Shown piece after piece: positions 3 to 27,397 of a DNA stretch of 34,489 nt. This stretch comes from Candidatus Hydrothermarchaeota archaeon (lineage in GTDB: Archaea; CAYFZR01): contig JBHIEG010000022.1 in the NCBI GenBank assembly GCA_046760505.1, forward strand, positions 1-34,489, written 5' to 3'. The translations under genes and the position numbers were made by a program. Under the pieces are notes generated by a model, which saw only the letters and a list, made by a program, of their open reading frames with translations, did not search any database and was not told the DNA's origin. Within the stretch, counting starts at the first letter, position 1. Every line of letters begins with the position of its first letter.

Positions 3-1568
3 GCTTTAGCCATAATATTTAGCATATCCGGATTTACTCTTTTTAAATGGAAATTTCCCACTTTTGTAGATATTTATTATCATCTAAGCGTGATGCGCGG
101 CTTTGATATGGCAAATGGTATAGTACTTCATGATTTCTGGGAATTCGCTCCGGTAGGAAGACCACACCTATATCCTCCCCTAATTCACATAATAATGCTC
201 TTTCTCTACAGATTGGGCTTGGATGTCTTGACAATCGGTAAAATCATGAGTTTTTCTATGTTTCCTTTATCTTTGATAACTGTATGGTTTTTTATGCGAG
301 AGATTTTTGATACAAAGAGTGCATTCTACAGTGTTTTATTGCTATCCATCCCTTTTCAATGGTTTTGGAGTCAAACAACGACAAATGCGATTGCATTTGT
401 TTTAATACTAACTCCTTTGATATTCTATTTCATCGAAAAGGAGAAAAAGATCGCAAGCATTGTTTTGATGGTTTTTTCCCTCTATTCTCATTTAAGCATG
501 CCGCATATTATTACCATAGCACTGTTGATTTATGGATTTCATAGAAAAGAGAAGAGAAATATGATTCTTACTGTATTGGGTGTTTCATATCTGCTTTATC
601 TTCCCTGGGGATTACATATTCTTAAAAATTTGGATGTAATAAACCCGGGTGTAGGATCTCTTTTTTACGTTGAATTTCACATAATTTTATTACTGCTTGC
701 TCTTTTTGGAATTTACATTTGCTACAAAAACAAGGGAGAATACTACCTTTTATCGTCTCTTTTTTTCGCGATGCTCCTAATACTTTTGAGATATCCATTC
801 AGATTTTGTTTTCATGTGATTTTGCCCATGTCCATGCTTGGCGGTATTTCTATTGCAATGGTGCATGATAGAATAAGTGAAAATAGAATAATGAAAAAGA
901 TTGATGCAAGATATCTTGAAATTCTTCTCATGATATTCATCATATTTGCATTAAACCTCGGGAATTTTACACTATATACAACAGTGTTTGAAAACAAGTT
1001 AGAATTTACAGTAGAAGACACGACCATTTTTAAGGTAATGGATTATAGACCAAATGAAAAAATGGTGATTGGCTGGTTTATGAAGTATTTTGGAGAGATT
1101 ACCGATAAAGACGTTTTTAAACTAATAGAAATTGTAAGAGCCAATACTGAAGAGAATGATATAATATTCACTAATGAAGGAACATATGGTTGTTTTATAA
1201 CATCTTTTACCGGAAGAAGACAAACAGGAGCAATGTTCCGCGAATTTTTGCCAAAAGAGCAATTAGATTACTCATTCATAGATCTTGTTGTGCTACACAG
1301 GATAGGAGAAGAAGACTTTAAAAGAATATACGAAAAACTTGAACCAGGAAAGAGACCGCCTTCATTGATTTTTTTAGATAGAATAGATGATATAAAGGTA
1401 TATGGGGTAAAAAAAGAAGTCAAAAAGAGAAATTTTATGGCTCCTTCACCCGTAATATCTATCAACGCTGCCATGTTCTTATTTCTTCTAGGTATTTTGT
1501 TGATTTTTTTAGATGTCACGTCTCTCTCATCAAAATTATTATTAAAATGGGGATTGAAGACTAACTAA
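3..1568 (+). CDS. GT-C-fold (AglB/STT3-like) multi-pass membrane glycosyltransferase, 5'-truncated by the window edge
   Basis: The frame is open from position 3 (ALAIIFSISGFTLFKWKFPTFVDIYYHLSVMRG), so the track start at 90 is too late. It has DxYYH then APVGRPHLYPP, many TM segments and a soluble C-terminal domain starting NDIIFTNEGTYG. Confidence 0.65.
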   Translation, partial: ALAIIFSISGFTLFKWKFPTFVDIYYHLSVMRGFDMANGIVLHDFWEFAPVGRPHLYPPLIHIIMLFLYRLGLDVLTIGKIMSFSMFPLSLITVWFFMREIFDTKSAFYSVLLLSIPFQWFWSQTTTNAIAFVLILTPLIFYFIEKEKKIASIVLMVFSLYSHLSMPHIITIALLIYGFHRKEKRNMILTVLGVSYLLYLPWGLHILKNLDVINPGVGSLFYVEFHIILLLLALFGIYICYKNKGEYYLLSSLFFAMLLILLRYPFRFCFHVILPMSMLGGISIAMVHDRISENRIMKKIDARYLEILLMIFIIFALNLGNFTLYTTVFENKLEFTVEDTTIFKVMDYRPNEKMVIGWFMKYFGEITDKDVFKLIEIVRANTEENDIIFTNEGTYGCFITSFTGRRQTGAMFREFLPKEQLDYSFIDLVVLHRIGEEDFKRIYEKLEPGKRPPSLIFLDRIDDIKVYGVKKEVKKRNFMAPSPVISINAAMFLFLLGILLIFLDVTSLSSKLLLKWGLKTN

Positions 1569-1578
1569 GATTTAGGGT

Positions 1579-2943
1579 GTGAACATGAACATGGAAAAAG
1601 TGCAAACAGAGTTTTCAATTAAAAAGTTAATTGTCATATTTTTTTTAATTTTCACCATATTTACAAAAACTTACCCTAATTCATGGAACGATGCCTCAAG
1701 AATGAACACAATAGAATCATTGGTTGAGAGAGGAACCTTTATAATTGACAATTCGACATTTTTCAATATCGGTGCAGATAAAGTATTCATAAATGGACAT
1801 TTTTACTCAGATAAGCCTCCTGTACTTTCTTTTCTGGCATCTGGACTATATCTAATTTTGCATAAGTTTTTTAACTTATCATTCAATAGTAGTGATAGAA
1901 ATTCCCTTCCCTACTACTTATTAACTCTTTTTATATGCGGACTTAGTTCAGTTTTATTATCATTCTTTTTTTATAAGTCATTGAGTCTATTAGGTGTAGA
2001 AGAAAGATTAAAATATATATTGGTTGGAAGTTTGATCTTCGGCACGTTAGTATTTCCTTATACAACGGTATTTAACAATCATATAGTAGCTGCTTGTCTA
2101 CTTTTTATCAGCTTTTACTTATTGTTGAAAACTAAATTCTGTCAAAATGGATTTAAGGGGGAAATTTTTCTTACTAGTTTCCTTACAAGTTTAGCAGCCA
2201 CCATAGATATACCATCAGGGGGGATTTTTTTCATATCATTTCTATTTTATATCTTGGCTGATAACAAGTTAAGAAAACATGCATACATCTACCTTTCAGG
2301 TGCACTTATTCCTCTTTCACTCCACGCACTTTTAAACATTCAAATAACAGGAGATCTAAAACCAGCTTATCTACATCCCGAATATTTCAAATGGGAAGGC
2401 TCACCATGGCTAGAAGAAGAGTTTAAAGGTGTTATATCAGGAATTAAATTTAATCACGACCTACTATTTATTCTAAAGTATTCTTTTCACTGTCTGTTCG
2501 GATATAGGGGATTATTTTCATATAGCCCCATACTGCTCTTTTCTCTACCAATGTTTTTTAGAGCGATTAAAAATAATACTCAAAACTTAAGAAAAGAGAT
2601 ACTTATGATATTTCTCAGTTGTTTTCTTATCGTGTCTTTTTACGTTACCTTTTCTACAACCTACGGAGGTATGTGTTATGGAATGAGATTTTTCATACCC
2701 TTTACGCCACTAATTTTCTTTATTTCAGCTATTTATATCTGTGAGAGTTCTTCAGAACGACTATTAAAAATGTTTTATGTCTTTTTATCGATTTCACTTA
2801 TCATATCCCTCATAGGTGTTTATAATCCTTGGTCGGGCGGGGATTTTCCATTGTTGACAAATTTATCTCGAATTCTAAGGGTAAATAGGGAATTCATTCC
2901 GATTTTAAAGTATATTTTTGATTATATTAGAGATATTGTATAA
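1579..2943 (+). CDS. Multi-pass membrane protein, probable GT-C (ArnT/PMT-like) glycosyltransferase
   Basis: N-terminal TM, then external loop WNDASR...HFYSDKPP (DKPP is typical of ArnT-like GT-C), roughly 11-12 TM segments, late YGMRFFIP motif. Start could be ATG 1585 or 1591. Confidence 0.55.
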   Translation: MNMNMEKVQTEFSIKKLIVIFFLIFTIFTKTYPNSWNDASRMNTIESLVERGTFIIDNSTFFNIGADKVFINGHFYSDKPPVLSFLASGLYLILHKFFNLSFNSSDRNSLPYYLLTLFICGLSSVLLSFFFYKSLSLLGVEERLKYILVGSLIFGTLVFPYTTVFNNHIVAACLLFISFYLLLKTKFCQNGFKGEIFLTSFLTSLAATIDIPSGGIFFISFLFYILADNKLRKHAYIYLSGALIPLSLHALLNIQITGDLKPAYLHPEYFKWEGSPWLEEEFKGVISGIKFNHDLLFILKYSFHCLFGYRGLFSYSPILLFSLPMFFRAIKNNTQNLRKEILMIFLSCFLIVSFYVTFSTTYGGMCYGMRFFIPFTPLIFFISAIYICESSSERLLKMFYVFLSISLIISLIGVYNPWSGGDFPLLTNLSRILRVNREFIPILKYIFDYIRDIV

Positions 2944-2954
2944 ACAGGTATTAC

Positions 2955-2970
2955 GGAAATCTTTAAATTT
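2955..2970 (+). promoter_or_regulatory. Putative BRE/TATA box for a leaderless transcript starting at ATG 2992
   Basis: GGAAAT-C-TTTAAAT with the box at 2962-2968, about 25 nt upstream of an ATG that has no SD. Downstream genes overlap or abut through 10327. Confidence 0.5.
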
Positions 2971-2991
2971 AAGTACTCTAATTTCTGCTAC

Positions 2992-3642
2992 ATGAACGCC
3001 AAAAATATAGCCATAATATTGCTTTTCGTTTTTTTAGTGGGCGCAGCTTATTTCATGCTCACTTCTGAAGAAGAAATATACAACGTAGAATTACTAATAA
3101 CGCCCTACCAGGAGCATTCGGAATTGCCCCCTAATTTAGGGAATATAAGGAATATAACTCAGATAGACGGGACTTTTTACTTGGATTTCAGGACTAAAAA
3201 TCCTAATTTCTATGATTTGCTCAAGAATATAGGATATATCAAAATCGCTTACGTATCTAGCCAAGGAGATCCTACCAAGAACATCAGAGATACGGTCAAA
3301 AACGCCAAAGAAGTTTACATCCTTTATGAAAGGTCTCAGGATGATTATGCTTACCAAAGAGTTGTCCAATCTGTAATCGAAACATCTCACGCAGTAGGAT
3401 TCGTCCATAAAGAAGATGTGGTTACAGCCAAGGAATACGGTTTGCTCTACAAGACTTTGTATCTATTGCATTACATAGGAAGGGAAGAGAAGCCAGTCAT
3501 TTTAATTAAAGATCCTAAAAAAACAGATAAAAATGTTATTGTTGTAAAAAAAGGAAGATCAATCGAAATAAATGCCAAAAATCCTGACGATTTATTTGAA
3601 GTTACGATGAATTTGAAACAAGTAATCGTCTCGGTGGTATGA
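2992..3642 (+). CDS. Membrane-anchored or secreted hypothetical protein
   Basis: 216 aa, basic N-terminus plus hydrophobic segment (MNAKNIAIILLFVFLVGAAYF), rest soluble. ATGA overlap with the GT4 gene. Confidence 0.7.
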   Translation: MNAKNIAIILLFVFLVGAAYFMLTSEEEIYNVELLITPYQEHSELPPNLGNIRNITQIDGTFYLDFRTKNPNFYDLLKNIGYIKIAYVSSQGDPTKNIRDTVKNAKEVYILYERSQDDYAYQRVVQSVIETSHAVGFVHKEDVVTAKEYGLLYKTLYLLHYIGREEKPVILIKDPKKTDKNVIVVKKGRSIEINAKNPDDLFEVTMNLKQVIVSVV

Positions 3643-4691
3643 TGAGGATATGCATGGTTGGTATGTTTCCTCCGCAGATAGGAGGAATATCAACTTATAA
3701 CTTTAATTTAACTAAAGAATTGAGAAGAAAAGGTCATCACGTAGAGATAATCTCGTACGAAAAAAACGATGAATTCATCACTCACAAGGCTTATCACATA
3801 AAAATACCGATTCTTAGAGGAATTACATTTTTCATCTCTGCACTAATTACTTTCTTAATTCTGAATAGGAAGAATAGATTTGATGTTATTCATGGACATT
3901 ATTTACTGCCAGCAGGATTGGTGGCGGTAGTTTCCAAAAAAATAGCAGGAACGAAGGCAGTAGTCATGACTTATGGTTCAGATATTCTTGTTTTGGGTAA
4001 AAAATGGTATTTAAGACCTATCTTAGCATGGATAATGAAATCTAGCGATTTAACAATTGTTTTAAGCAGAAAACTTAAAGAAGAAGCAATAAAGATGGGT
4101 ATAGAAGATTCAAAGATAAGATTGGCTCCTATAGCCATTGATGAAGAGTTATTTAATCCAAACATAGAGTCGAACATAAAGAAAGAATTTGGAATAAAAG
4201 GAGATGTGATACTCTTCGTTGGAGCCTTGGTTAAGCAAAAAGGTCTTGAATATCTCATCGAAGCATGCAATATTCTAAGAGAAAATCTTGAATTTACATT
4301 GATTGTGGTAGGAGATGGTCCATTAAGAAAAGAACTGGAGAAAAGATCTGAAGGACTAAACATCATATTTACTGGCTTCAGAAAAGACGTAAATAGGTTT
4401 ATGAAGGATGCCGATATTCTGGTGTTACCGTCAATCTCAGAGGGTCTTGGTTTCGTTGTTTTAGAGTCTATGGCAGTTGGAACCCCTGTTTTAGCAACTA
4501 AAGTAGGTGGGATACCAGAACTTATTGAGAACGGAAAAAATGGCGTGCTTGTAGAGCCTGGAGACCCTGTTGCTCTGGCAGATGGGATAAAAAAGTTACT
4601 CAAGGAAAAAGAATTTCGCGAAAAAATCATAAAGAGTGGTTTTTCAAAAATAAGAAGAGAAGATGTCTCTGCCATATATGGAGGTATCTGA
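3639..4691 (+). CDS. GT4 family (GT-B) glycosyltransferase
   Basis: FPPQIGG, DVIHGH, LFVGALVKQKG, VVGDGP, LPSISEGLGFVVLESMAVGTP (EX7E), GGIPE. Confidence 0.95.
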   Translation: MMRICMVGMFPPQIGGISTYNFNLTKELRRKGHHVEIISYEKNDEFITHKAYHIKIPILRGITFFISALITFLILNRKNRFDVIHGHYLLPAGLVAVVSKKIAGTKAVVMTYGSDILVLGKKWYLRPILAWIMKSSDLTIVLSRKLKEEAIKMGIEDSKIRLAPIAIDEELFNPNIESNIKKEFGIKGDVILFVGALVKQKGLEYLIEACNILRENLEFTLIVVGDGPLRKELEKRSEGLNIIFTGFRKDVNRFMKDADILVLPSISEGLGFVVLESMAVGTPVLATKVGGIPELIENGKNGVLVEPGDPVALADGIKKLLKEKEFREKIIKSGFSKIRREDVSAIYGGI

Positions 4692-6086
4692 CTGAAGAGA
4701 AATTTGATATTGCTGATGCTATTCGTGGGCATAATTCGAGTTATACCTAATATGAACGGCATCGCTGGACTAGATACCTATTTACATCTCACAATATGTG
4801 ATCTTGTATACAAGGGATTACTTATTCAGAGAGATCTTCTTAGCATCTTTGGATTAAGGGCATATGGTTATCCAACGGGATTTCATTCTCTTTTATCTTC
4901 CCTCTCTTATCTTTCCAATACACATCTAAATACGTTATTTATAATAATTCCATCTGTGCTCTCTTCTATTATAGCGGCTACATTTTTTTTATTTTCTAAG
5001 TCCTTTAATCTAACGGATAAAGAGGCTTTTCTTTCTACACTTCTTTTTACTACTGCTCCATCGTTTGTTCAGAGGAGTTCATACTCTATACCGGAAATAG
5101 TCGGTATACTGTTCTTTTTACTCTCACTATCTTTCCTCTTAAGATGGAATGAAAAAAAAGATAGAAAAATGATTTTTTTATTCCTTTTGGTCTTTTTCGC
5201 ATATGCTTTAACCCACAGAGGAATATTTTTTCTCTTAATTGTTATGTTCATATTCTTTCTAGTTTATTTCAGGGAGGAGGTAAAGAGATATTCCATTCTT
5301 ATTTTTTTTGCAATATTAATACTCATTTTAAGCGGCATAGGTATAGATTTGGTCCAAAGAATCCCATGGGAACCGGTTACCGCTAAGGGTTTTATTTTAT
5401 CATTAGGTCCTATCCTATTTTTCCTCGGTATTATAGGTATTTTTAATGCATTCGAAAGAAGAGAAAAAAGGGATATATTTCTTTTATCGTGGATAGTCGC
5501 ATTTGGATTGATAGGAACGATGAGTTTTAGATTCAGGGACCCCTATCTTGCTATACCTTTCTCTTTGATTATTAATCCGGTAAGAAAAGACTATCTAAGG
5601 ATACTGATACCCATAGTAATAATCGTTGGGGCAATACAATCCTTTTATGTTATAGAAAATGGCTTATACCGATTAGATAAACCAACAAAATACAGTCTAT
5701 CGTTTTTGCAAGAGAACAGCGATCAGAACTCCGTTGTATTGACATGGAGGATAGAAGGATACTGGATAAATGGGCTGGCAAAAAGGAGAGATATAATAAT
5801 ATGGAATAAATTTTATCAGGGTTTTTTTAATAAACCACCGTCTTATAAAGAATCTCTGGAAAAATATAAAGATGTTGAGGAGATATTTAGAACAATTAAC
5901 TCTAGCAGATCATTTGAACTCATGGAGAAGTACAATGTCTCATACATATATTTTTCTAGGGATATGCTTAACATGGATACCTTGGAATATGGTTTGATAG
6001 AATATATAGATAAAAATGAAAGGTTTTCTCAAATATACGCGAATCCTATGGCTAGAGTTTATAAGGTGGATTTGAATGAGGCCTGA
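4692..6086 (+). CDS. GT-C-fold (AglB/STT3-like) membrane glycosyltransferase
   Basis: GLDTYLH, YGYPTGFH, PEIVG, many TMs, C-terminal NSVVLTWRIEGYWI and KYNVSYIY as in STT3 soluble domains. Start is either CTG 4692 (GGAGGT at 4680-4685) or TTG 4704. Confidence 0.65.
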   Translation: MKRNLILLMLFVGIIRVIPNMNGIAGLDTYLHLTICDLVYKGLLIQRDLLSIFGLRAYGYPTGFHSLLSSLSYLSNTHLNTLFIIIPSVLSSIIAATFFLFSKSFNLTDKEAFLSTLLFTTAPSFVQRSSYSIPEIVGILFFLLSLSFLLRWNEKKDRKMIFLFLLVFFAYALTHRGIFFLLIVMFIFFLVYFREEVKRYSILIFFAILILILSGIGIDLVQRIPWEPVTAKGFILSLGPILFFLGIIGIFNAFERREKRDIFLLSWIVAFGLIGTMSFRFRDPYLAIPFSLIINPVRKDYLRILIPIVIIVGAIQSFYVIENGLYRLDKPTKYSLSFLQENSDQNSVVLTWRIEGYWINGLAKRRDIIIWNKFYQGFFNKPPSYKESLEKYKDVEEIFRTINSSRSFELMEKYNVSYIYFSRDMLNMDTLEYGLIEYIDKNERFSQIYANPMARVYKVDLNEA

Positions 6087-7233
6087 AATTATATTTTTTA
6101 CGGTTCAAACTCTCTATTTTTTGGGTGCATTTATCGGTTTTTTGAATCCGAAGACTAGATACTTACTCGAAATAGGTTTTGAAGGCTTTCCTTATAAAGC
6201 CATTATTTTCCTGCTCTTAGGTGCAATATTCTTTTGTATTGGATCTCTTCTCGCGGATAAGAAAGGAACGATTCATGAATGGAAAAAATCAATCAAAGTT
6301 TTATTTTTATTGTTCTTATTTTTGATTTCTTTATCACTTATTAAGTTTGTATTGAAATTTACCATGCTACAGTCTTTTGGATTGGCTTTGATTACAGTAA
6401 TTTCTGTTTTTTCCTTCCTAGAAATTCTGCCAAGATATCCCTATGAGACATGCCTTTCATATTCTATAACAGGTATAGGTTTTCTACTTTTGAATTTCTT
6501 TTACATAGGAGGAATTCCTTTTTTTAACCCGCTTCTGAAAGGATATACTCAAAATTTAATATGGGGTATTGGTTTCATCTTTAGTTTACTTGGGAGCATA
6601 TTCTGTTTGAAACTTTGGAAGAACAAATCACAAATGATTTTGAGTTACTTTTTAAGCGTTATAGTAATTATTTTATTGGCATTATCAGCATACAGATCAC
6701 AGTTCCTAGTATTTGTATTTGCGATTTTTTTTGTATTCGATAGGAAGCCCTATCTTAAATTATTATTTTTGACGTTGTTCTCGCTGGCTGTTTTCTTATC
6801 ACTTACCAAGTTGACGAGTGATCTGGATTTATCTATGGTGGAGATATTGTTCTACAGACTAGGTTTTTCACTGAGTGTTTTGGAGAATATCATAGATCTA
6901 GGGATATTTGGTGTAACGCATGGAAAACTCTGGTTTTTGAAAGAGCCAAGGGTCCTTTTGGGAGAGATGGCACTCGGGTATAGTCATAATACCACCGCCA
7001 CAATACTAGGCACTCTTTGGTTGGACGGCGGTCTGATAGAATCTATTTTGTTTATGACAGCAATTGGCTTCCTTTGTAGAATGCTCTATGAACTTAGAGA
7101 AAGTGATTTACTCTCTCCTTTGTATGCGATTTCAATCTCGCAGGTTCTTGTATGGATTGAGATAGGGCCTGATCTCTACTCATTAATTCCGATAATTCTC
7201 TCTGCTCTCTCGATTAAGTGGTGGAAGAAATGA
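6076..7233 (+). CDS. Putative oligosaccharide repeat-unit polymerase (Wzy-like, archaeal DUF70/O_anti_polymase type)
   Basis: Highly hydrophobic 385 aa with GGIP, LSAYRS and TTATILGTLWLDGG motifs as recalled for this family; lies between GT genes. Confidence 0.65.
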   Translation: MRPEIIFFTVQTLYFLGAFIGFLNPKTRYLLEIGFEGFPYKAIIFLLLGAIFFCIGSLLADKKGTIHEWKKSIKVLFLLFLFLISLSLIKFVLKFTMLQSFGLALITVISVFSFLEILPRYPYETCLSYSITGIGFLLLNFFYIGGIPFFNPLLKGYTQNLIWGIGFIFSLLGSIFCLKLWKNKSQMILSYFLSVIVIILLALSAYRSQFLVFVFAIFFVFDRKPYLKLLFLTLFSLAVFLSLTKLTSDLDLSMVEILFYRLGFSLSVLENIIDLGIFGVTHGKLWFLKEPRVLLGEMALGYSHNTTATILGTLWLDGGLIESILFMTAIGFLCRMLYELRESDLLSPLYAISISQVLVWIEIGPDLYSLIPIILSALSIKWWKK

Positions 7234-8105
7234 TAAATCCCGTCATATCTTTTCTGGTCACGATTCTCCTAACTCCACTGTGGATAAAATATGCGAAGAG
7301 AGCAGGAATAATAGGAACAGACCTGCATAAAGAGGAAAAAAAAGAAGTAGCGGAGATGGGTGGAATACCTATTTTAGCAGGTCTTTTTTCTGGTGTTTTT
7401 CTAAGTTTTGATTACGAATTGCTCCCAATCGCCCTCTACCTAATTTCAGTATCATTTCTCGGGATCACAGACGATCTCCTGAAATTTGACAAGGTAGAAA
7501 AAATCATTTTACCAGGCATACCAGCGCTAATTTTGGGTTTCAAAAATCCTCTTCTGATGCCTTATTTGTTTATAACATCTTCAGTAGTTTTAAACTGGAC
7601 AAATATGCTTGCGGGTTTGAACGGTCTTGAATCAGGACTTGGAATTTTACTGCTGGCATCTTTCTCCATAATATCTTTTCTTACTAAAAATACTGGCGCA
7701 TTCCTTTTATCCTCTTGCATGATGGCCTCTCTCCTTGCATTTTTATACTACAACAGGTATCCAAGCAGGATATTCCCGGGCGACTGTGGAACCATGCTTA
7801 TAGGGGCGGTTTTCTTTTCTGTAGTTTATTTGACAAAAGTTGTAATTCCGGCTTTCATAGTACTCATTCCCTATTTGATGGATTCTGCTCTAAAGTTCCT
7901 CTCAGCAGGCATAATGAGAAGGGAGGAGAAAAAGCCAACTAAAATAAAGGATGGTTTGTTATATTCAGCGGGAGATTACAATTCCCTCATAAGGGTAATC
8001 ATAAGTATAAGACCGATGAGTGAGAAGAAGGTGGTATATTGTATATGGATGATTCAAACAGTCTTTTCTCTTTTAGGAATTCTATCCTTCTTATTGTTAT
8101 ATTAA
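7230..8105 (+). CDS. UDP-GlcNAc:dolichyl-phosphate GlcNAc-1-phosphotransferase (AglH/Alg7-like, MraY/GPT superfamily)
   Basis: GTDLHK...VAEMGG, GITDD, NMLAGLNGLE, YNRYPSRIFPGDCG. ATG 7230 overlaps the upstream TGA (ATGA). Confidence 0.88.
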   Translation: MINPVISFLVTILLTPLWIKYAKRAGIIGTDLHKEEKKEVAEMGGIPILAGLFSGVFLSFDYELLPIALYLISVSFLGITDDLLKFDKVEKIILPGIPALILGFKNPLLMPYLFITSSVVLNWTNMLAGLNGLESGLGILLLASFSIISFLTKNTGAFLLSSCMMASLLAFLYYNRYPSRIFPGDCGTMLIGAVFFSVVYLTKVVIPAFIVLIPYLMDSALKFLSAGIMRREEKKPTKIKDGLLYSAGDYNSLIRVIISIRPMSEKKVVYCIWMIQTVFSLLGILSFLLLY

Positions 8106-10327
8106 CAATATCAATTTCATCTTTTTCTCTGCTTCAAAAATTTCCAATTGGTTACGATAGTTACTATCATATGAGAATAGCCAATGAAGTTTCAAACGGA
8201 AGTTTAATACAATACGATTATAGGAGTGCTGCTCCCCATGGAAGGCCACATTTGTATCCTCCAGCATTTCATATTCTATCTGCTGATTTGTTATTGCTTT
8301 CTGAATTAGATATAATTAACATATTCAGGATATTGCCAATGGCATTCCTTATTTTATCGTCTTTATCTTTTTGGATATTTGTAAAAAATATGTATAATGA
8401 AAAGATAGCCTCATATGCAACCGTATTATTTTTACTTTCTCCTACCTATGTTATAAGAGGATTAACGCCTACCCCAGAGAGTTTGGGAATAGCATTGATT
8501 CCATTGATTCTTTTTTTATCGCTGAGAAATTCTTTCATTTTGACTACTCTTTTTTTAGGATTTCTGGGAATTTTAAGTTCTTTTTCATTTATTGTAGGAG
8601 TAATATGCGTTCTAATATTTTCTAGAAGGAGGTTGCTTATTATAATCGGTTCGCTTTTGTTATCCTCCCCTTTCTGGTATACCTTACTCCATTACTATTT
8701 GAATGGATATGAAATACACCCATTCTTATCTTACACAAATTTAATATACTACCCAAAAAGGCTTGGATATGTTCAGACATTTTTGTCGCTCTTAAGCCTT
8801 TCATTTGATCCTTTAACCCTTTTCGCTTCTATAATCTTTATTCTATCTCAAAGCCATCACTTTTTCACGATTACATCAGATAGATTCGTTACTTTTCTAG
8901 CCATACCTCTAGGCGTGCTCGCTGGTAGAAAGATTGCAGGGATTAAAGATAGGATTGAGATAAAAAATGAAAGAATCTACATCAGAAAAGAAATCGTCAT
9001 GCTTCTTCTATTAACAATCGTTCTGGCGCAAGCCTTATTCTTCTTAAGTGAGACGAAAGCTTCGCTCTCTAACCATGAACTGAATTCATACGAATTCCTC
9101 TCTACCTTACCAAAAAATTCGATAGTTTTATCTGAATGGCAGGTTGCACCAAAGATATTATTTTTCTCTCATGTAAGAAGCGTAAAGGGAGCTTTTGGAT
9201 ACAGTATAGCAGACTTGGAAGAAAGAAACAGAGATGTCAAACAAATGTTAAAGGGAAACAAAAGTCTCCTGAAAAAATATCGGATAAATGACATATACAT
9301 CTCAAATAAAGAAAGAAAAGAGGGATTCAATGAAGAATTTTTCAAATCTAGCGTTTCAAAGGTATACGATGGCATAGATATCTCTATATACGAATACTTT
9401 CCGGTTAAGGTAAAGGTATGGAGCTGGCCCAATGCGAAAAAAGGCGCATTTACCATATTTTGTGATGACGTATCCCCTCATTACAGTTTTGATTGTCTGA
9501 ATAAATTCTTATCCACGGTAAACGAAAAGGGAGGAAAAGTCGATTTATTCGTAATACCAAACCACATGGGTAAATATAAGATTACAGAAGCAAGTTCAGA
9601 ATGGAAAGAATACGTAAAGAGAGCTTCAATTAAAAATGAACTGGGATTGCACGGATTTTACCATAACGAGAGAAAATGCGACTGTTACTGGGAAAAAGAT
9701 TATGAAGAACAGAAGAAGAATATAATGGAAGGAATAAAATTGTTTAACATGGCTTTTGACAAAAAACCAAGAGGATTTCGGCCGCCGGGATGGAAGTACA
9801 ATGAGGATACCATATCCGTTCTGAGAGATCTAAACTTTACGTATTCCGCTTCTACTTGGTATTATGGAAAGAATATGAGTTTTACTGATAAAATATTTCC
9901 ATACTGGCGCGAAAATATTCTAGAAATTCCTTCAACAACAGGAGATTACTTATGGGAATTTAAAATGGATGAAAAAAATGCATTAGAGAGATTTGAAGAA
10001 GTATACGCTAAGAACGGATTGTACAGTATGCAGGTTCACCTTCAGTATTCCTGCAACGAAGAAGGTTTACGCCTAATTTCTAGCATCTTGGAAAAGGCAA
10101 AAAAGAGGGATATGTGGATTACCTTGCCAAAGGAAATCGCTGAATTTTATATTCTGAGGAAAAATGTACACATAGATTATAGCATGGTTGGAGATATATT
10201 AACAATCGATATTGAGAACGGCAACGATATCGATGTCAAGGGATTAACTTTAATGATAGGTAACGAGACAGTAGTATTGGATCTAAAGCCAAAGGAAATA
10301 AAAAAATACAGGTTAAAACTCGGATAG
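8039..10327 (+). CDS. GT-C (STT3-like) membrane glycosyltransferase fused to a C-terminal CE4/NodB polysaccharide deacetylase
   Basis: N-half FPIGYDSYYH, APHGRPHLYPP, PESLG plus TMs. C-half TIFCDD, LHGFYH, GFRPPGW, QVH. Start TTG 8039 or ATG 8045 after AGGTGG, overlapping the previous gene by about 60 nt. Confidence 0.75.
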   Translation: MYMDDSNSLFSFRNSILLIVILTISISSFSLLQKFPIGYDSYYHMRIANEVSNGSLIQYDYRSAAPHGRPHLYPPAFHILSADLLLLSELDIINIFRILPMAFLILSSLSFWIFVKNMYNEKIASYATVLFLLSPTYVIRGLTPTPESLGIALIPLILFLSLRNSFILTTLFLGFLGILSSFSFIVGVICVLIFSRRRLLIIIGSLLLSSPFWYTLLHYYLNGYEIHPFLSYTNLIYYPKRLGYVQTFLSLLSLSFDPLTLFASIIFILSQSHHFFTITSDRFVTFLAIPLGVLAGRKIAGIKDRIEIKNERIYIRKEIVMLLLLTIVLAQALFFLSETKASLSNHELNSYEFLSTLPKNSIVLSEWQVAPKILFFSHVRSVKGAFGYSIADLEERNRDVKQMLKGNKSLLKKYRINDIYISNKERKEGFNEEFFKSSVSKVYDGIDISIYEYFPVKVKVWSWPNAKKGAFTIFCDDVSPHYSFDCLNKFLSTVNEKGGKVDLFVIPNHMGKYKITEASSEWKEYVKRASIKNELGLHGFYHNERKCDCYWEKDYEEQKKNIMEGIKLFNMAFDKKPRGFRPPGWKYNEDTISVLRDLNFTYSASTWYYGKNMSFTDKIFPYWRENILEIPSTTGDYLWEFKMDEKNALERFEEVYAKNGLYSMQVHLQYSCNEEGLRLISSILEKAKKRDMWITLPKEIAEFYILRKNVHIDYSMVGDILTIDIENGNDIDVKGLTLMIGNETVVLDLKPKEIKKYRLKLG

Positions 10328-11587
10328 AGAACTTTGTTTCTTTCTTGACTTTCTTTTCTTCCCCTTAGTTCCATCTGTCTGATAATCACCAATAAGGAAG
10401 TTAACTTCTTCTTCGTCGAATTCGAAGAATCTTATTAAATCTTCGGGATTTTTATTGTTTTTTAGAATGGTTTTAAGGAAAGGTATCTCCATTGAAGCGA
10501 GTTTTGAAGACTTATGGGTCTTTGCTCCTATCTTTGTGGCTATTCTCTTCGTCATCTCCCTTTCTTTTTTTGTTCTCGAGAGACTATAGAATATACTTGG
10601 ACGTTTATACCGGGTGAATTTTTTGTACGGAGAATTCTTTGCTGAAGAAACTCCACAAGAAATAAGATCGCTTACATAACCGAGAAAACCCCAGTATTGT
10701 CTCCTAATTATCCTTCCCATGAACACGTCTCCCCTCGATATGTATTCATAGGCATCTCTTATTTCCTCTGAATTTTCGTATTCTTCTGGTATATTGCTGG
10801 CTATCCATTCAATCAACAATTTAGGATCCTCGCTAGAATCCAAAATTGCTTTTCTAGCGGTATCAATTCTCCTAGATTTAAATATCTTGCTTAATGTATT
10901 GAATACGGATTCTTCCCTGTCCCTGGAGCTTAATGTTTCAAGGTCTTCCTGAGTGATCTTTTTTCTACCCTGAGAAATGGACTGAAGGTCATTTATTGCA
11001 GACCGCAAATCACCTTCGTTCATCTTGGCAATTATTTCGAGAATCTTCTTTTCAAATTCAATTCCCTGATCTTTGCATATCTTTTCCAGAATTTTTACTA
11101 TGGTAGAAGAATGAATCTTCTTAAACTCTACGGATTTGCAATAGCTTTTTAAAGTTCTAAGCTGGGTTGCATAAGGATCGTTTGCTATCAGTATTATTGG
11201 ATTTCTTGTATCTTTTATGATTTCAATGATTCCTTTTACTCCTCCTCTGTCCTCTCTTCCTGTGATGCCATCGATCTCATCGAGCAAGATTAGCCTTTTC
11301 TCTCCCCTGTTTAATGTAGATGTTTGAGATGCTGGACCGACTATCTCCTTTATAATCTTATATGATCTCTGATCAGATGCATTCAGTTCAATAAAATCGT
11401 AGCCCAAATCGTTTGCAATAGCTCTTGCAAGAGATGTTTTTCCTGTTCCAGGAGGTCCGTATAACAATAAAGCCTTGTATTTGCCTTTTTTCCATGAATC
11501 TATCCATTCTTCTACTTCCTTTATAGCCTTTGGGTTTCCAAGAACCTCTTTTACACTTTTTGGCCTGTAATCTTCAGTCCAGAGCAT
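10313..11587 (-). CDS. rfcL: Replication factor C large subunit
   Basis: MLWTEDYRP, GPPGTGKT, ELNASD, LLDEID, GDLRSAIND, C-terminal PIP box QSSLSEF. ATG 11587. Confidence 0.96.
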   Translation of the reverse strand: MLWTEDYRPKSVKEVLGNPKAIKEVEEWIDSWKKGKYKALLLYGPPGTGKTSLARAIANDLGYDFIELNASDQRSYKIIKEIVGPASQTSTLNRGEKRLILLDEIDGITGREDRGGVKGIIEIIKDTRNPIILIANDPYATQLRTLKSYCKSVEFKKIHSSTIVKILEKICKDQGIEFEKKILEIIAKMNEGDLRSAINDLQSISQGRKKITQEDLETLSSRDREESVFNTLSKIFKSRRIDTARKAILDSSEDPKLLIEWIASNIPEEYENSEEIRDAYEYISRGDVFMGRIIRRQYWGFLGYVSDLISCGVSSAKNSPYKKFTRYKRPSIFYSLSRTKKEREMTKRIATKIGAKTHKSSKLASMEIPFLKTILKNNKNPEDLIRFFEFDEEEVNFLIGDYQTDGTKGKKRKSRKKQSSLSEF

Positions 11588-12986
11588 GATCAATCACGAA
11601 TTCACAGTAGTCGTTACCCATTGATACGCACTTCGTTTCTTTAAAGCCTGAGCACCTTATTCCTAGTGTTTCAAAGTAGGCTGTCAGGTAGTGACCGATC
11701 CAGAAGCAATAAGGAGTGCCCAAGTTTATTCTTTTCTTAAATCCTGCATCCAGATAACACTCATGAACACGATATTTAGCGTATTCTTTAGAAATATCAA
11801 CTATTTCAAACCTTCCAAGACCAAGTCTTTCCATTATATAGATTAAATCATTTGCAGCTTTTTTTATGTCCTTTGCGCCAGAAAATTTTCCCGAAGCAAT
11901 TCCAATTGTTCTTGCAGAAGATTTCAATGTCTTCCCTGCTCCAACCCCCTTGAATTCCATTATTAATGCAAGTCCAAGCGCATGTATTAGATGCATCATT
12001 GCCATATCTCCCATTTCTCTGATTTCTTTACCTTCTAGGAAAGAGGTTAGATCTCTGATTAGAATTTCCTCTATTTTCTTGGATACGTCTTCCCAGTCAA
12101 CCTCAACTCTAGTCCTTTCTTTTCTTTCGCGAGTATAGATAACGAACTCATCATAAGGATCGCCCATGGCCTCGCATTTTACCTCTGAAAAGCCAGATAC
12201 ATCGATTTTTGCACTCTTTAGAGCTGAAAGAAGGTATTCACCTATCCAAGTGCAGTAGGGAAAGTCCAAAACCAAATTAGAGTACAAACCCGTACTCAGA
12301 TAGGAATCATATACTCTATAAACTATCTTTTCATCTGAATACTCTATCAACTCAAGGCGGCATATTCCCAGTCTTTCGGATATATCTGATAGTTCTTTGG
12401 ATATGCCCTCCAGATCATCTGCGCTAACACTTTCTCCTGCTGCACCTCCAATTATGTGAGAAGATATCTTCAGGATGTCCCCCACATTCTTTCCCTTGTA
12501 ATCATGGATCAGGGATATACCCAACGTATGGATGAAGTGCATCGATGTTTTGTCTCCCATTTCCCTTATCTTTTCTCCCTTTATGTACCTCTTAATCTGA
12601 TTTTTTATGATGCTGAGTAGTTTATGGGAAAAGATATACCAGTCCACCACATATGGCTTAGATATGGGTATCAGATTTTCATCAATGTCGAGTAATGAAT
12701 TTTGTTTCTCAGAATACACTTTTTTGAGTACTTCAAGCAATTCATCGTCGGATTGTATGCCTATTATCACCTCTTGCCCTATATATGTGGTTGGGGCTTT
12801 CCTTACGCCATATTTTTCTGCTACCCATGGATTTTCTACCGCGTCTACTGAATAGAGTTCTAATGGGATATTTGCATCTTCTGCAACTCCTATCAATAAG
12901 GTTGCCAGAAATTCGCAGTAAACGCATGTCGGAGTGGTAAACATTATCGATTTTACCGTATACATGTCGTTCTTTTCCATTACCAT
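11574..12986 (-). CDS. Thioredoxin-like domain fused to two V4R domains
   Basis: FTTPTCVYC...YGVRKAPT (Trx fold). Two internal repeats beginning IREMGD and ending EVKCEAMGDPYDEF / ETKCVSMGNDYCEF (V4R). Confidence 0.8.
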   Translation of the reverse strand: MVMEKNDMYTVKSIMFTTPTCVYCEFLATLLIGVAEDANIPLELYSVDAVENPWVAEKYGVRKAPTTYIGQEVIIGIQSDDELLEVLKKVYSEKQNSLLDIDENLIPISKPYVVDWYIFSHKLLSIIKNQIKRYIKGEKIREMGDKTSMHFIHTLGISLIHDYKGKNVGDILKISSHIIGGAAGESVSADDLEGISKELSDISERLGICRLELIEYSDEKIVYRVYDSYLSTGLYSNLVLDFPYCTWIGEYLLSALKSAKIDVSGFSEVKCEAMGDPYDEFVIYTRERKERTRVEVDWEDVSKKIEEILIRDLTSFLEGKEIREMGDMAMMHLIHALGLALIMEFKGVGAGKTLKSSARTIGIASGKFSGAKDIKKAANDLIYIMERLGLGRFEIVDISKEYAKYRVHECYLDAGFKKRINLGTPYCFWIGHYLTAYFETLGIRCSGFKETKCVSMGNDYCEFVIDHALD

Positions 12987-14810: not shown

Positions 14811-16685
14811 ATGAAGATGTTACTTGTCCATTCAGATTATATAAGTTACGAGGCTAGGGAAAAGACAAAGGTTGCTGAAGAAACTGATTCAAAAAAAGGC
14901 TATTTAGAGGATGTCTTAGTTAGTTTTATAGCGGTAGAATCAATTGATGAGAAGGACAGCAAATATGTCATAGAGAATTCCGTCTCAGAAATATCAAAGA
15001 TAGCGAAAGATGTTGGTTCACGAAACATCTGTCTTTATCCATATGCTCATCTCAGTTCAGATCTTGCAAAGCCCACTTTGGCAATAGATATATTAAAGCA
15101 AATGGAGTTTAGGCTCAGAGATCTCGATTACAATGTATTAAGGGCTCCCTTTGGCTGGTACAAATCTTTTGAATTAAAGTGTAAAGGACATCCTCTCTCA
15201 GAGCTTTCAAGGAGCATAACCCCTTTAGAGCAAAAAGAAGTTGTATCAAAGGCACTTATTGATGAAGAGAAGGCAATTTCTCACTGGTACATCTTAGATC
15301 AGGATGGAAAATTGATAGAAATATCAGATTTTGACTTTGAAGGATACAAAAATCTAGAAAAATTTGCAAACCATGAGATAGCGAAAAGCAGGATCGTGGA
15401 TAAGATCCCTCCTCATGTGGAGTTAATGAGAAGATTAGAAATAGCAGACTACGAAGCAGGCTCTGATCCTGGGAATATGAGGTACTATCCTAAGGGAAGG
15501 TTGATAAAATCTTTGCTCGAAAGATACGTTTTAAACAAAGGAATAGAATACGGAGCCATGGAAGTGGAGACTCCTATAATGTATAACATGGATCACCCTA
15601 CCCTGAGAAAATACCTTGATAGGTTTCCTGCAAGGCAGTATTCAATAGAATCAGAAAAGAGGAATCTATTCCTAAGGTTTTCTGCCTGTTTTGGACAGTT
15701 TTTGATGAACCATGATATGACAATATCGTATAAAGATTTACCTCTTAAGATGATAGAAATGACAAGATATAGCTTTAGAAGAGAGCAGAGAGGGGAATTG
15801 GTTGGATTGAAGAGATTGAGATCATTTACCATGCCAGATATGCATACTCTCTGCGCCAATATGGACCAAGCCATGAAAGAGTTCAAGAATCAATACAAAT
15901 TATGCATAGATGTATTGAGAGAAATTGGATTAAGTATAGATGATTATGAAGTTGCAATTAGATTTACAAATGATTTTTATGAAAAAAACAAGGAGTTCGT
16001 CAATGAACTAGTAGATATAGTCGGGAAACCTGTTTTAATAGAGATGTGGGATAAAAGATACTTCTATTTCGTTCTTAAATTTGAGTTTAACTTTATAGAT
16101 GCTTTAGACAAGGCAAGCGCTTTATCCACGGTTCAAATAGATGTTGAAAATGGCGAGAGGTATGGTATTAGTTTTGTAGACGTTGATGGGGAAAAGAAAT
16201 TCCCCATAATACTTCATTGCTCTCCAAGCGGTGCGATAGAAAGATGTATCTACGCTTTACTGGAAAAAGCCCACCTTAAAATGGAGGAAGGCTATTTACC
16301 AACTCTACCGCTGTGGTTGTCTCCAATTCAGGTTAGAGTTATACCGGTATCAAATGCCCATCTAAGATATGCAGAAGAAGTTCACGGTGCTCTTAAAAAA
16401 TCAAAGATAAGGACAGATTTAGATGATAGAGACGAAACACTGGGAAAAAAGATTAGAGATGCAGGAAGGGAATGGATTAACTACATTGTAGTAGTGGGAG
16501 ATAAAGAGGTAAGAGAAGGCACTATTACAGTTACAATAAGGGAAGGATCTAAAGTAGATGAGACTAAAAGGAAGGAAATGAAATTAGAAGATTTGATAAA
16601 TGAGATAAAAGAGCAGTGCAAGGATATGGTTTTCATGCCTCTCTCTTTGCCTGATAGAGTATCGGTAAGACCCAAATTCAGATAG
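14811..16685 (+). CDS. thrS: Threonine--tRNA ligase, archaeal type
   Basis: Archaeal editing domain [22 protein letters not shown]; catalytic [23 protein letters not shown]; anticodon-binding C-terminus. Confidence 0.98.
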
Positions 16686-22216: not shown

Positions 22217-22611
22217 TCAGGTAGTAGAGCAACTTTTATCAAATACTGGAATTCTTTCCACGAAATTTATTTCTGCCTTAATATCTTAGATTATACTTTA
22301 AGAGAGCATAAGGCTTTGATTTTTCAATCTCGTAACCTTGAGTTGCAAATATTTTCTTTGTCCTTCAACATATCTTCCTTTGATTTTTTAGAGACATAGT
22401 TGAAGTCTAAATCAATTGATAGTCTACTTATTTTAAGATAGATAAAGTTGATAGCGGTTCCACCCTTTAAAACAAGCGTTTCTCTCAGAAAATTTTCTTC
22501 GTAAATCGCCTTCAATAAGAATGTTAGCCTGTAGACTTTTTCCAAAATATCCTTCTGAAACCTGGTTTTCTCTGATAAATCCTCGAAATATTTCCTATCG
22601 ACCTCAAGCAA
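22217..22611 (-). pseudogene. AbiEii-family nucleotidyltransferase toxin, frameshifted and deleted
   Basis: ILEKVYRL, LKGGTAIN, RLSIDLDF, then continues in other frames as IFATQGYEIEKSKPYALLKYNLRY* and IKAEINFVERIPVF. Confidence 0.82.
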
Positions 22612-22670: not shown

Positions 22671-22812
22671 CTGACTCCATACACTACTCAGCGCCAATGG
22701 GGGTTCGAACGAAATTGTAAAACCTAAATTATCGCAAAAATATTGCTCTATTTATTAGCGTTTTTTGTAAAAAATAAGCAAGTACATTGGATTTTTAATA
22801 TGATATTGGTAG

Positions 22813-22898
22813 TGCAGGGGAGGGGATTTGAACCCCCGAAGGCACTACTGCCAACAGATCTTAAGTCTGTCCCCTTTGACCTTCTCGGGCACCCCTGC
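22813..22898 (-). tRNA. tRNA-Leu(TAA), CCA not encoded
   Basis: GCAGGGG...ACAGA-CT-TAA-GA-TCTGT, variable arm GGCAGTAGTGCC, GGGGGTTCAAATCCCCT, CCCCTGC-A followed by CTA. Confidence 0.97.
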
Positions 22899-26027: not shown

Positions 26028-27248
26028 TCAATCCCCTTTTAATGCATGATAAACCGCTTCTCTTGTGCCCTCTCTATCCATGCCTGCTAAGATAAATACG
26101 TAACGTCCTTCCTTCCTAAAGCCAATGGAAAGAAAAGGCTCTAAACTGTTTCTTGTAATATTGTATTCTTTCATGAGAGCTTTTGAGTAAATATTTACAT
26201 CAGGACCTCCAATTAGTACTATGTCGTTTGAAAAATATTTTTCTAGATCTAAGTCATCGAAGAAGATGCCTTTTGTTTCTATTCTCTCAGAGAGTATTGA
26301 TGCACTCTCGTAATCGTATTCTGGGGCTTTTTTTCCTACTATAACAATGGGAACTGTTTCTTTTAAATAATCATTAGCGTTTACCACTTTGGTCTTTTTA
26401 AAGGAAATAAGTCTTAGAATATCATTTAAATCGCCTTTCTCTAAGAGAAGATTTGATTTTCTTTCCGCGTGTTCTCTGTACTCTATGTTACCTGTTACTT
26501 TGTATAGTGTATGGAAGGAGTTTATTTCCATCCATGATGTTTTATTTGTCCATTTTAGATAATTATAGGTCATTTCTGCTTTTTTAAGAATATTTCTATC
26601 TTTTTTGAATGAATAATAAATTAGCAATGCATTTAGTGCATGAACAGTAGGCAAATAGGAGGCTTCTCCTTCGTATTTTGGTACCAAAATAGGAAAGCCT
26701 CCATTTGATTTTTGAGAATCCATTACGATATCAATTATCTCCTCCGAGCGTTTAAGATATGTCTCTTTTCCGCTAACTTCGTAGGATTTCAATAGAATCA
26801 CCGAATAGTCAGAGAGTCTCACGATAAATTCTGAACCGCAATGACCATTGATCCAATTACACGCTCTTAAGATGGAAGAATAGACATCTCCTTCTCCAAG
26901 TATTTCTGAGTATTTTAGCAATGAAAGAGTTGCATATGCTGTATCTTTGAATTGAAATGATTTTCTACCCCAACTTCCCCATGGATTCTGCTCTGATAAT
27001 AAAAAATCTTTCCCTCTTTCAATACTTTCTAACACCTCTCCGTCTTTTGTCACCTCGTAAAATTCTATTAACGCAACAATATTCTTTGAAGTTAGTTCTA
27101 TACTTGGAAAACCTTTATCTCTCCAGTAGCCTTCCTCATCTTGCATTTCTAATAATTCCTTCGCGAGACTTTCATTTAAATTAGACAGACAATACGATGG
27201 ATGCAACAACGTTACAAAGGAAAAAATAGATAGGATAACTAACCTCAT
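26028..27248 (-). CDS. Secreted alpha/alpha-barrel (prenyltransferase/squalene-cyclase-like repeats) protein with a C-terminal S-layer-like domain
   Basis: Signal peptide from ATG 27248; QDEEGYW, QNPWGSW, QKSNGGF repeats; C-terminal IVIVGKKAP...D, IVLIGGPDVN, ILAGMDREGTREA. Confidence 0.7.
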   Translation of the reverse strand: MRLVILSIFSFVTLLHPSYCLSNLNESLAKELLEMQDEEGYWRDKGFPSIELTSKNIVALIEFYEVTKDGEVLESIERGKDFLLSEQNPWGSWGRKSFQFKDTAYATLSLLKYSEILGEGDVYSSILRACNWINGHCGSEFIVRLSDYSVILLKSYEVSGKETYLKRSEEIIDIVMDSQKSNGGFPILVPKYEGEASYLPTVHALNALLIYYSFKKDRNILKKAEMTYNYLKWTNKTSWMEINSFHTLYKVTGNIEYREHAERKSNLLLEKGDLNDILRLISFKKTKVVNANDYLKETVPIVIVGKKAPEYDYESASILSERIETKGIFFDDLDLEKYFSNDIVLIGGPDVNIYSKALMKEYNITRNSLEPFLSIGFRKEGRYVFILAGMDREGTREAVYHALKGD

Positions 27249-27397
27249 GGTTAGAGTTTTGATGTCACTTTTTTTCCAGAACAAAATATTCACGCACCTT
27301 TTTCAGAAAAATTTAAATATATACATTGTCCTTATTTAATTTAAACCTCTAAGATCCCTGTTTGCGCAAGACGCTCGTCAGACTCTGGAGGGTATTG

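Follow-up and report, generated by a model that had tools for sequence, protein, structure and literature searches.

A run of eight genes (g1 to g8), all on the forward strand, occupies positions 3–10327 of a 34,489-nucleotide stretch of DNA (contig JBHIEG010000022.1 of assembly GCA_046760505.1, Candidatus Hydrothermarchaeota archaeon; hereafter the window) and was analyzed as a putative operon for a dolichol-linked envelope glycan. An earlier note on this DNA had described eight co-oriented, mostly overlapping genes, and this layout was confirmed: the eight forward-strand open reading frames (ORFs) are joined by junctions of +10, +48, −4, +12, −11, −16 and −67 nt from g1 to g8, whereby four of the seven overlap and the largest gap is 48 nt. 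Translation of g2 probably starts at ATG 1585 and that of g8 at ATG 8045, each two codons after the ORF start, and both the ESM Atlas record of g2 and P0001, the cluster of g8 itself, begin at residue 3. The first gene is open at its 5' end, where about 11 codons are cut off by the window edge, judging from the N-terminus of an orthologue. The window begins inside g1, and therefore nothing upstream of g1 is visible.

The orthologue belongs to the sole syntenic relative found, locus L001 of an uncultured archaeon, in which g1, g3, g4, g5, g6, g7 and g8 have counterparts in unchanged order; after them come, as in the window, the genes for the replication factor C large subunit (RFC-L), a thioredoxin-V4R protein and NifS. 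Pairwise amino acid identities of these seven orthologues range from 62 to 85% (74% for the N-terminal half of g8), and the ratio of non-synonymous to synonymous substitutions (dN/dS, Nei-Gojobori) lies between 0.08 and 0.15 in all seven pairs, that of the family-less g3 included, as under purifying selection. Since seven of the eight genes are kept in order at such ratios, g1 to g8 are real genes and not chance ORFs. Synteny ends after NifS, where L001 has a nucleotidyltransferase/HepT-like pair of the toxin-antitoxin type (15417–16108, +) that does not occur in the window.

For family assignment, the 30 larger ORFs of the window were scanned against Pfam and 16 against NCBIfam. The product of g7 (7218–8105) matches PF00953 (Glycos_transf_4) at 1.6e-21, and its nearest solved relatives in a sequence search of the Protein Data Bank (PDB) are MraY (3.3e-9) and human DPAGT1 (1.9e-8). 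In residue-by-residue alignments, its stretch N..N.LAG.NGLE.G corresponds to the version of DPAGT1 (5lev), whereas MraY (5jnq) has Asp at these sites; the DD and PSR.F.GD stretches can be aligned as well. Because the motif stretch fits DPAGT1 and not MraY, g7 is assigned to the AglH/Alg7 type of polyprenyl-phosphate N-acetylglucosamine (GlcNAc)-1-phosphate transferases (GPT) of the PNPT superfamily, with GlcNAc as its presumable substrate. This bears out the GPT/WecA-type initiator of the earlier note. A pseudomurein-related or MraY function was rejected for g7, which scores 63.3 bits against the NF053644 cut-off of 450 and carries motifs of the DPAGT1 type; no Mur-ligase-like genes were found among the scanned ORFs of the window by Pfam or NCBIfam. 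The cytoplasmic transferase step also has a candidate, namely g4 (3639–4691), a GT4 glycosyltransferase of the GT-B fold with matches to Glycos_transf_1 (2.1e-45) and Glyco_transf_4 (9.1e-23), all of its NCBIfam equivalog matches being sub-threshold. Of the cytoplasmic glycosyltransferases that the earlier note names as a part of repeat-unit pathways, this one was found.

Three proteins are membrane glycosyltransferases of the GT-C fold related to the oligosaccharyltransferases STT3 and AglB: g1 (3–1568), which has an extra C-terminal transmembrane (TM) helix, g5 (4704–6086), and the N-terminal module of g8 (g8N, residues 1 to about 445, 8039–9409). They are paralogous by BLASTP (g1–g8 1.1e-17, g5–g8 7.8e-12; the direct g1–g5 comparison is not significant). 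A full-library phmmer search with g8 returned 466 proteins at E<=1e-3, and 36 N-terminal-type matches were aligned with g1, g5 and g8N into a set of 39 members (A1). The A1 profile finds Archaeoglobus AglB (AfAglB, 7.7e-17), human STT3A (1.7e-16), PglB (4e-13) and yeast STT3 (1e-12) in the PDB; within A1, 14 of the 39 members match PMT_2 and 4 match STT3 in Pfam. There is no Pfam family for g1 itself, and g5 reaches PMT_2 at 1.8e-5 (25.5 bits, slightly below the cut-off of 26.1) and TIGR03663 (Agl23) of NCBIfam at 4.5e-5 (22.7 bits, cut-off 126, in the generic GT-C core only). An AlphaFold 2 (AF2) model of full-length g8 from a 50-row alignment reached a pLDDT of 90.7 and a pTM of 0.70. Its membrane half retrieved yeast STT3 (1.4e-11) and human STT3A/B (about 7e-11) by Foldseek against the PDB, in a leading range of 1.4e-11 to 4e-10, followed at lower ranks by AfAglB (7.8e-9), PglB (1.5e-8), ArnT (1.3e-6), ALG12 and AftA.

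The residue pattern of this family is uneven. D40 of g8, the Asp of the first external loop (EL1), is invariant in 39 of 39 A1 members and aligns with the N-terminal Asp stretch of AfAglB, while Y73, P75 and R282 of g8 are each conserved in 37 of 39; in g5, the EL1 Asp and the Arg counterpart of R282 are both retained. The WWDYG motif of oligosaccharyltransferases binds the +2 Ser/Thr of the glycosylation sequon. At its position in AglB, WD[YF]G is kept in 3 of the 39 members and is degenerate in 36, including g1, g5 and g8N, and a W-x-[DEN]-[YWF]-G motif occurs in none of g1, g2, g5 and g8. Because homology, fold and the Asp are kept and WWDYG is lost, the three proteins are considered STT3-fold GT-C enzymes and not strict oligosaccharyltransferases.

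The whole g8 ORF spans 8039–10327, and its C-terminal module (g8C, 9410–10327) comprises a CE4/DUF2334 deacetylase domain at residues ~458–700 and a terminal beta-sandwich at ~710–760. In Pfam, g8C matches DUF2334 at 2.9e-19 (69.9 bits, cut-off 26) and Polysacc_deac_1 at 4e-10 (40.2 bits, cut-off 23.1). Its Foldseek matches are CE4 enzymes at 2e-8 to 1e-5, among them 3rxz (2.3e-8), HP0310, PuuE, ArnD (6e-8) and PdaC, and together these results uphold the proposed CE4 deacetylase. D476-D477, H538/H542, R581-P582-P583 and H667 are present and were aligned with relatives, HP0310 and 3rxz; they correspond to Asp-Asp, His-x3-His and Arg-Pro, which we take to be the metal-binding and catalytic motifs of CE4. 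The substrate would be an N-acetylhexosamine (HexNAc). By homology to the STT3 topology, the soluble part that follows the last TM helix would lie outside, so the CE4 domain is predicted to be extracytoplasmic. Among 157 proteins compared, a check that covered the best 150 of the 466 g8 phmmer matches, both halves of g8 were matched only by P0001 and by P0002, the L001 orthologue; 108 matched the N-terminal half only and 43 the C-terminal half only. The fusion of an STT3-like protein with CE4 therefore appears lineage-restricted, as far as these sequences reach. No description of it was found in the literature searched, and a literature search for DUF2334 returned incidental mentions only, and one for PF01901 gave unrelated work.

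Between g5 and g7 lies g6 (6076–7233), encoding a polytopic membrane protein that matches PF01901 (O_anti_polymase) at 1.8e-34 (120 bits, cut-off 24.2) over model positions 5–326 of 335. The ESM Atlas model of g6 (pTM 0.80) has PF01901 (TM-score 0.78), Wzy PF14296 (0.68), FtsW/RodA of the SEDS family (0.57) and Wzy_C ligases (0.52–0.56) as structural neighbors. In the accessible text of Makarova et al. (2015; PMC5898192), pfam01901 proteins (arCOG03206) are likewise said to resemble Wzy, with an HHpred match of 98% to PF14296. A PDB sequence search with g6 gave no match, and a word-index search for relatives returned only its own cluster, so that the size of the family is not informed by it and relatives are known from Atlas and Pfam. 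The Wzy protein named in the earlier note is hence borne out as a Wzy-like fold class, with polymerase activity as a prediction from sequence and model.

The two remaining genes are less conspicuous. For g2 (1579–2943), a PMT/ArnT-like GT-C protein, the best NCBIfam match is to the LA_3751/LA_3752 putative glycosyltransferase family (4.1e-17; 62 bits where 200 are required); its Atlas feature and structure neighbors are partly labeled PMT, PMT_2 and RgtA-like (TM-score 0.79–0.88), and a PDB sequence search gave no match. The count of four GT-C proteins consequently stands, for g8N by the AF2 model and Foldseek, for g1 and g5 by paralogy and the A1 profile, and for g2 by the sub-threshold match and the Atlas leads. 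There is no g2 homologue in L001, where the g1 orthologue is followed by 69 nt (L001 3831–3899) and then by that of g3, and the two loci share a conserved stretch of about 45 nt ahead of g3. This presence/absence is clean and typical of variable surface-glycan loci, which makes g2 an accessory gene. A recent foreign origin of g2 was rejected on composition, its GC content at third codon positions (0.28 against 0.30–0.38 in the neighbors) not being distinctive. Finally, g3 (2992–3642) encodes 216 aa with a single hydrophobic segment at residues 6–24, an N-terminal TM or signal-anchor helix; it has no Pfam match and no PDB match, each at E<=10, while its L001 orthologue is 78% identical (dN/dS 0.105).

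What precedes g1 is seen in L001. There, a gene for an AglB/STT3-like protein of 681 aa with a WDYG motif (226–2271, +) ends 11 nt upstream of the g1 orthologue. The protein (P0157) matches PMT_2 (5.1e-6) and STT3 (8.1e-5) in Pfam, archaeo_STT3 over 430 residues (7.1e-12) and human STT3A/B in the PDB, its WDYG being aligned to the WWDYG of STT3A; upstream of the gene, the contig ends after 225 nt of AT-rich non-coding sequence. Because this gene directly precedes g1, an AglB-like oligosaccharyltransferase stands at the head of the orthologous operon. That a canonical AglB is lacking, as the earlier note observed, holds for the window, the motif being absent from all four GT-C proteins, and is probably an edge effect. 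The accompanying claim that the pathway is distinct from ordinary N-glycosylation is not supported, as the AglB-like WDYG gene of the sole syntenic relative stands exactly where the window is cut. The absence of a flippase was again correctly noted, no MOP/Wzx family being present among the scanned ORFs. A synthase-dependent pathway resembling that of poly-N-acetylglucosamine was discarded, no GT2 synthase being encoded in the window.

Overall, we regard it as slightly more probable than the opposite that the genes at 3–10327 are the larger part of an operon for a dolichol-linked envelope glycan, which would most likely be an elaborate agl-type protein-glycosylation cluster and not a separate free-polysaccharide pathway. 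In the proposed sequence of events, g7 would form dolichol pyrophosphate (Dol-PP)-linked GlcNAc at the membrane's cytoplasmic side, and g4 would extend it by one sugar or more, with a nucleotide sugar as donor, after which a flippase encoded outside the window and L001 would move the intermediate outward. Outside, g6 might polymerize or otherwise handle the Dol-PP-linked unit, and g1, g5, g8N and the strain-variable g2 might perform extracytoplasmic transfers, either additions of sugars from dolichol phosphate (Dol-P)-sugar donors or transfer of the glycan to a non-sequon acceptor. The CE4 module of g8 would de-N-acetylate HexNAc outside the membrane beside its own GT-C module. Because the L001 operon is headed by the AglB-like WDYG gene, Asn residues of surface proteins are the probable destination of the product, to which an AglB-like enzyme, seen in L001 only, would transfer it. 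Two features of this cluster are uncommon: oligosaccharyltransferase-derived paralogues without the sequon motif, and the lineage-restricted fusion of STT3-like and CE4 modules.

Several observations weigh against this interpretation. The locus has a single cytoplasmic glycosyltransferase, which is few for a repeat unit, and the link to AglB comes from one relative, the window's own upstream sequence being missing. A Wzx/AglR (MOP) flippase and a GT2 Dol-P-sugar synthase were found neither in the 34.5-kb window nor in the 20.3 kb of L001. The assignment of g2 to GT-C, built on sub-threshold matches and leads, is the weakest of the four, and the fold of g6 is supported by Pfam, the Atlas model and one paper, its own AF2 model from three near-identical sequences being unusable (pLDDT 42.2, pTM 0.32). 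Moreover, species-representative genomes were scanned with an alignment of 12 sequences (g8N, g1 and relatives), and of the 80 related loci obtained only one had the full gene set, contrary to the expectation that the set would recur in related genomes. In 31 of the loci the STT3-like gene has 5 kb or more on each side, and in 28 of these it stands without other cluster genes (phmmer, E<=1e-3), and the g8N relative in locus L004 lies in a housekeeping context. Since these 28 loci lack the partner genes and the nearest relatives lie in housekeeping contexts, the STT3-like family is not generally tied to such clusters.

The wider distribution is nevertheless informative. Next after L001, the nearest relatives of g8N are ~27–29% identical, stand-alone proteins of ~450–520 aa in Methanofastidiosum and related metagenome-assembled genomes (MAGs; L002–L012). 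The ~510-aa Methanofastidiosum proteins were considered as canonical AglB; they match STT3 in Pfam at 2.5e-9 but are without a WWDYG-type motif. In L004 of Methanofastidiosum, two ORFs of ~440–450 aa (8575–9897, −; 11337–12689, +) that match neither a Pfam nor an NCBIfam family flank the g8N-like gene. Proteins of the g1 type occur widely, both in archaea (Bathyarchaeia, Theionarchaea, Jordarchaeia) and in bacteria, for example Omnitrophota, Hydrogenedentota, Planctomycetota and Actinomycetota. Some loci are partial analogues of the operon. Two, L015 of Altiarchaeota (5250–12530) and L054 of an uncultured archaeon (5596–12456), have the order TruD, GPT, GT4, GT4, STT3-like GT-C, GT4 and a DNA-alkylation repair gene; the GPT of L015 was found by phmmer only, not at the Pfam threshold of 1e-5, and the last GT4 of L054 lies on the opposite strand. 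In L059 and L064 of Jordarchaeia, a GPT gene lies 2–3 kb downstream of the STT3-like gene. A MAG of Micrarchaeota (L018, 2157–6990) has, in one direction, a gene of the flippase-like family LPG_synthase_TM, one for a GT2 of 230 aa, an ORF of 121 aa and a tandem pair of STT3-like genes. Judged by its gene content, this layout resembles the three-component arrangement of polyprenyl-phosphate-sugar synthase, flippase and GT-C that would be expected for Dol-P-sugar-dependent extracytoplasmic glycosylation.

This last arrangement also suits another explanation, the one favored in the earlier note, namely that the operon makes a free or lipid-anchored envelope polysaccharide of the Wzx/Wzy type (capsule, sacculus or lipoglycan) independently of N-glycosylation, the GT-C enzymes adding branches only. 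The same list of parts fits it, the window itself is without AglB, and the GT-C families related to the STT3-like genes (PMT_2, ArnT, ALG12, AftA) use polyprenyl-phosphate monosaccharides as donors. It is nonetheless doubtful, though to be taken seriously, given that the AglB-like gene heads the orthologous operon and that Pfam and NCBIfam scans found Wzx, a Wzz/PCP chain-length regulator or an export gene in neither the window nor L001. A narrower alternative concerns g8, which might be a fused pair analogous to ArnD and ArnT: CE4 would deacylate a lipid-linked amino-sugar donor, for example Dol-P- or Dol-PP-linked GlcNAc to glucosamine (GlcN), and the GT-C module would transfer the sugar, giving a cationic GlcN decoration instead of deacetylation of a finished polymer. 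Both genomes retain the fusion; ArnD, whose substrate is a lipid-linked sugar, ranks with the best structural matches of the CE4 module (8t0j, 6e-8, TMt 0.63), ArnT is among those of the GT-C module, and in NCBIfam g8C comes closest to a deacetylase of lipid-linked GlcNAc (GlcNAc-PG deacetylase, 6.1e-9, below cut-off). However, CE4 enzymes of peptidoglycan, polysaccharide and xylan match equally well, the NCBIfam matches of g8C are far under the family cut-offs, and ArnD acts on the cytoplasmic face, whereas g8C is predicted outside; we therefore consider the donor-deacylating pair unlikely.

Polymerases and ligases (Wzy and WaaL) have the same fold class, and g6 might accordingly be a ligase of the WaaL/PglL type, by which the Dol-PP-linked glycan would be transferred to a lipid or to protein Ser/Thr. 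In the Atlas, the first feature cluster of g6 carries the automatic name 'putative O-Antigen ligase', and its structural neighbors include Wzy_C ligase clusters; the match to Wzy PF14296 is higher than that to Wzy_C, the HHpred match in the accessible text of PMC5898192 is to Wzy, and transfer activities are already on offer from three STT3-like proteins and AglB, all of which makes a ligase quite improbable. It is still harder to credit that g5 or g2 is the missing flippase. This idea would rest on analogy with Haloarcula hispanica Agl23, a GT-C-like protein which, in the accessible part of the report, translocates Dol-PP-oligosaccharide in proteoliposomes (PMC11182771), on the absence of a MOP-type flippase from the window and L001, and on the match of g5 to TIGR03663, 'flippase activity-associated protein Agl23'. 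That match is weak and in the generic GT-C core, as given above, g5 retains the catalytic-type Asp and Arg of its family, and the flippase gene may simply sit elsewhere in the genome. These four alternatives are not mutually exclusive in every detail.

A more far-reaching proposal, which we put forward as a speculation with little probability, is that the WWDYG-less g1, g5 and g8N constitute a new GT66-related class attaching or remodeling a Wzy-polymerized, Dol-PP-linked repeat glycan on non-sequon acceptors, with g8 coupling de-N-acetylation to it. If true, they would be candidate genes for the sequon-independent, Dol-PP-dependent repeating-unit N-glycan of the Halobacterium salinarum S-layer, as described in the accessible text of PMC2952790, and a methanogen-related lineage would have a polymerized, partly cationic envelope glycan. 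Archaeal envelope-glycan pathways are poorly mapped beyond a few model species, and here one operon unites a eukaryote-type GlcNAc-1-phosphate transferase, a Wzy-like protein, up to four GT-C proteins and a fused, predicted-extracellular deacetylase, with an AglB-like gene in the sister genome. If the predictions hold, the locus would show how the oligosaccharyltransferase scaffold came to be re-used for other extracytoplasmic transfers and would offer testable candidates for polymerized or amino-sugar-bearing archaeal N-glycans; if they fail, it is an ordinary strain-variable surface-glycan operon of an uncultured archaeon.

The remainder of the window (GC content ~31–41%) contains methanogen-like archaeal housekeeping genes: RFC-L, an archaeal threonyl-tRNA synthetase with an editing domain, NifS, DUF2114 and SMC/ScpA/ScpB. 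RFC-L (−) converges with g8 (+), their 3' ends overlapping by 15 nt (10313–10327), which leaves no room for a terminator between them. Next to it, here and in L001 (12488–14071), is the gene of the thioredoxin-V4R protein (window 11574–12986, −), whose 470 aa begin with a thioredoxin fold and end with a V4R domain; the C-terminal part also matches the MsvR model (3.4e-12, under cut-off). A 95-aa ORF (22324–22611, −) beside tRNA-Leu(TAA) (22812–22898, −) aligns to no more than the initial ~50 positions of the AbiEii toxin nucleotidyltransferase family and may be the remnant of a mobile or defense element. With its weak match to S_layer_C (1.4e-6), a 421-aa protein (26028–27293, −) is a surface-protein candidate that might accept the glycan.

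Among known systems, N-glycosylation clusters of the AglH/AglB type occur, for example, in Methanococcus and Sulfolobus. The operon shares with these Agl clusters the Alg7/AglH-type GPT charging Dol-P (g7), a soluble glycosyltransferase (g4), an AglB-like oligosaccharyltransferase in L001 and the extracytoplasmic last steps; it differs by three additional STT3 paralogues without WWDYG, the PF01901 gene and CE4 fused to one paralogue, and by having no AglR/Wzx-type flippase in the locus and no AglB visible in the window. The Wzx/Wzy pathway of O-antigen and capsule (WecA, glycosyltransferases, Wzx, Wzy, Wzz, WaaL) likewise brings together a PNPT initiator, a cytoplasmic glycosyltransferase and a Wzy-superfamily protein. 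Here, in contrast, there is no Wzx or recognizable Wzz/PCP, the carrier would be dolichol with a eukaryote/archaea-type GPT, and the terminal transferases would be STT3-like instead of WaaL.

At the level of single proteins, g1, g5 and g8N have in common with STT3/AglB/PglB (GT66) the fold, sequence homology, the EL1 Asp, the conserved Arg and a soluble domain after the last TM helix, but they are shorter (~440–520 aa as compared with 590–970 aa in AglB) and their WWDYG is degenerate. With the extracellular CE4 enzymes (PgdA, PdaC, PgaB/IcaB) and with ArnD/ArnT, g8 shares the CE4 fold and the Asp-Asp, His..His and Arg-Pro-Pro motifs, and, as in Arn, a link to GT-C; in g8, however, CE4 is covalently fused to an STT3-like GT-C, with no other case among the 157 proteins compared.

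A precedent for a Dol-PP-assembled repeat-unit polymer on an extracellular protein is the N-glycan of the Halobacterium salinarum S-layer, which, according to the accessible text of PMC2952790, is attached irrespective of the +2 Ser/Thr, by enzymes and pathway genes not yet assigned; the organism is unrelated. The closest parallel in gene content is the PF01901 module of Makarova et al. (2015; PMC5898192), in which, as far as its accessible text goes, arCOG03206 typically occurs as two paralogues with the one-TM protein arCOG03414, often beside PMT/STT3-like glycosyltransferases (arCOG00563/00566), and from which an archaeal pathway for a lipopolysaccharide-like product or glycosylation was predicted. 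The earlier note, which did not recognize the locus as a characterized pathway, was partly right, in that no experiment exists, while the association of PF01901 with a one-TM protein and PMT/STT3-like transferases had already been predicted in that paper. Here, too, the PF01901 gene g6 stands beside PMT/STT3-like GT-C genes, between g5 and g7/g8, and g3 has the small single-TM architecture of arCOG03414; there is one PF01901 ORF in the window where two paralogues are typical of the module. None of five PF01901 neighborhoods examined in part 153 of Supplementary Table 3 (PMC5898192) has a GPT, GT4 or CE4 gene, all three of which are present in the operon described here.

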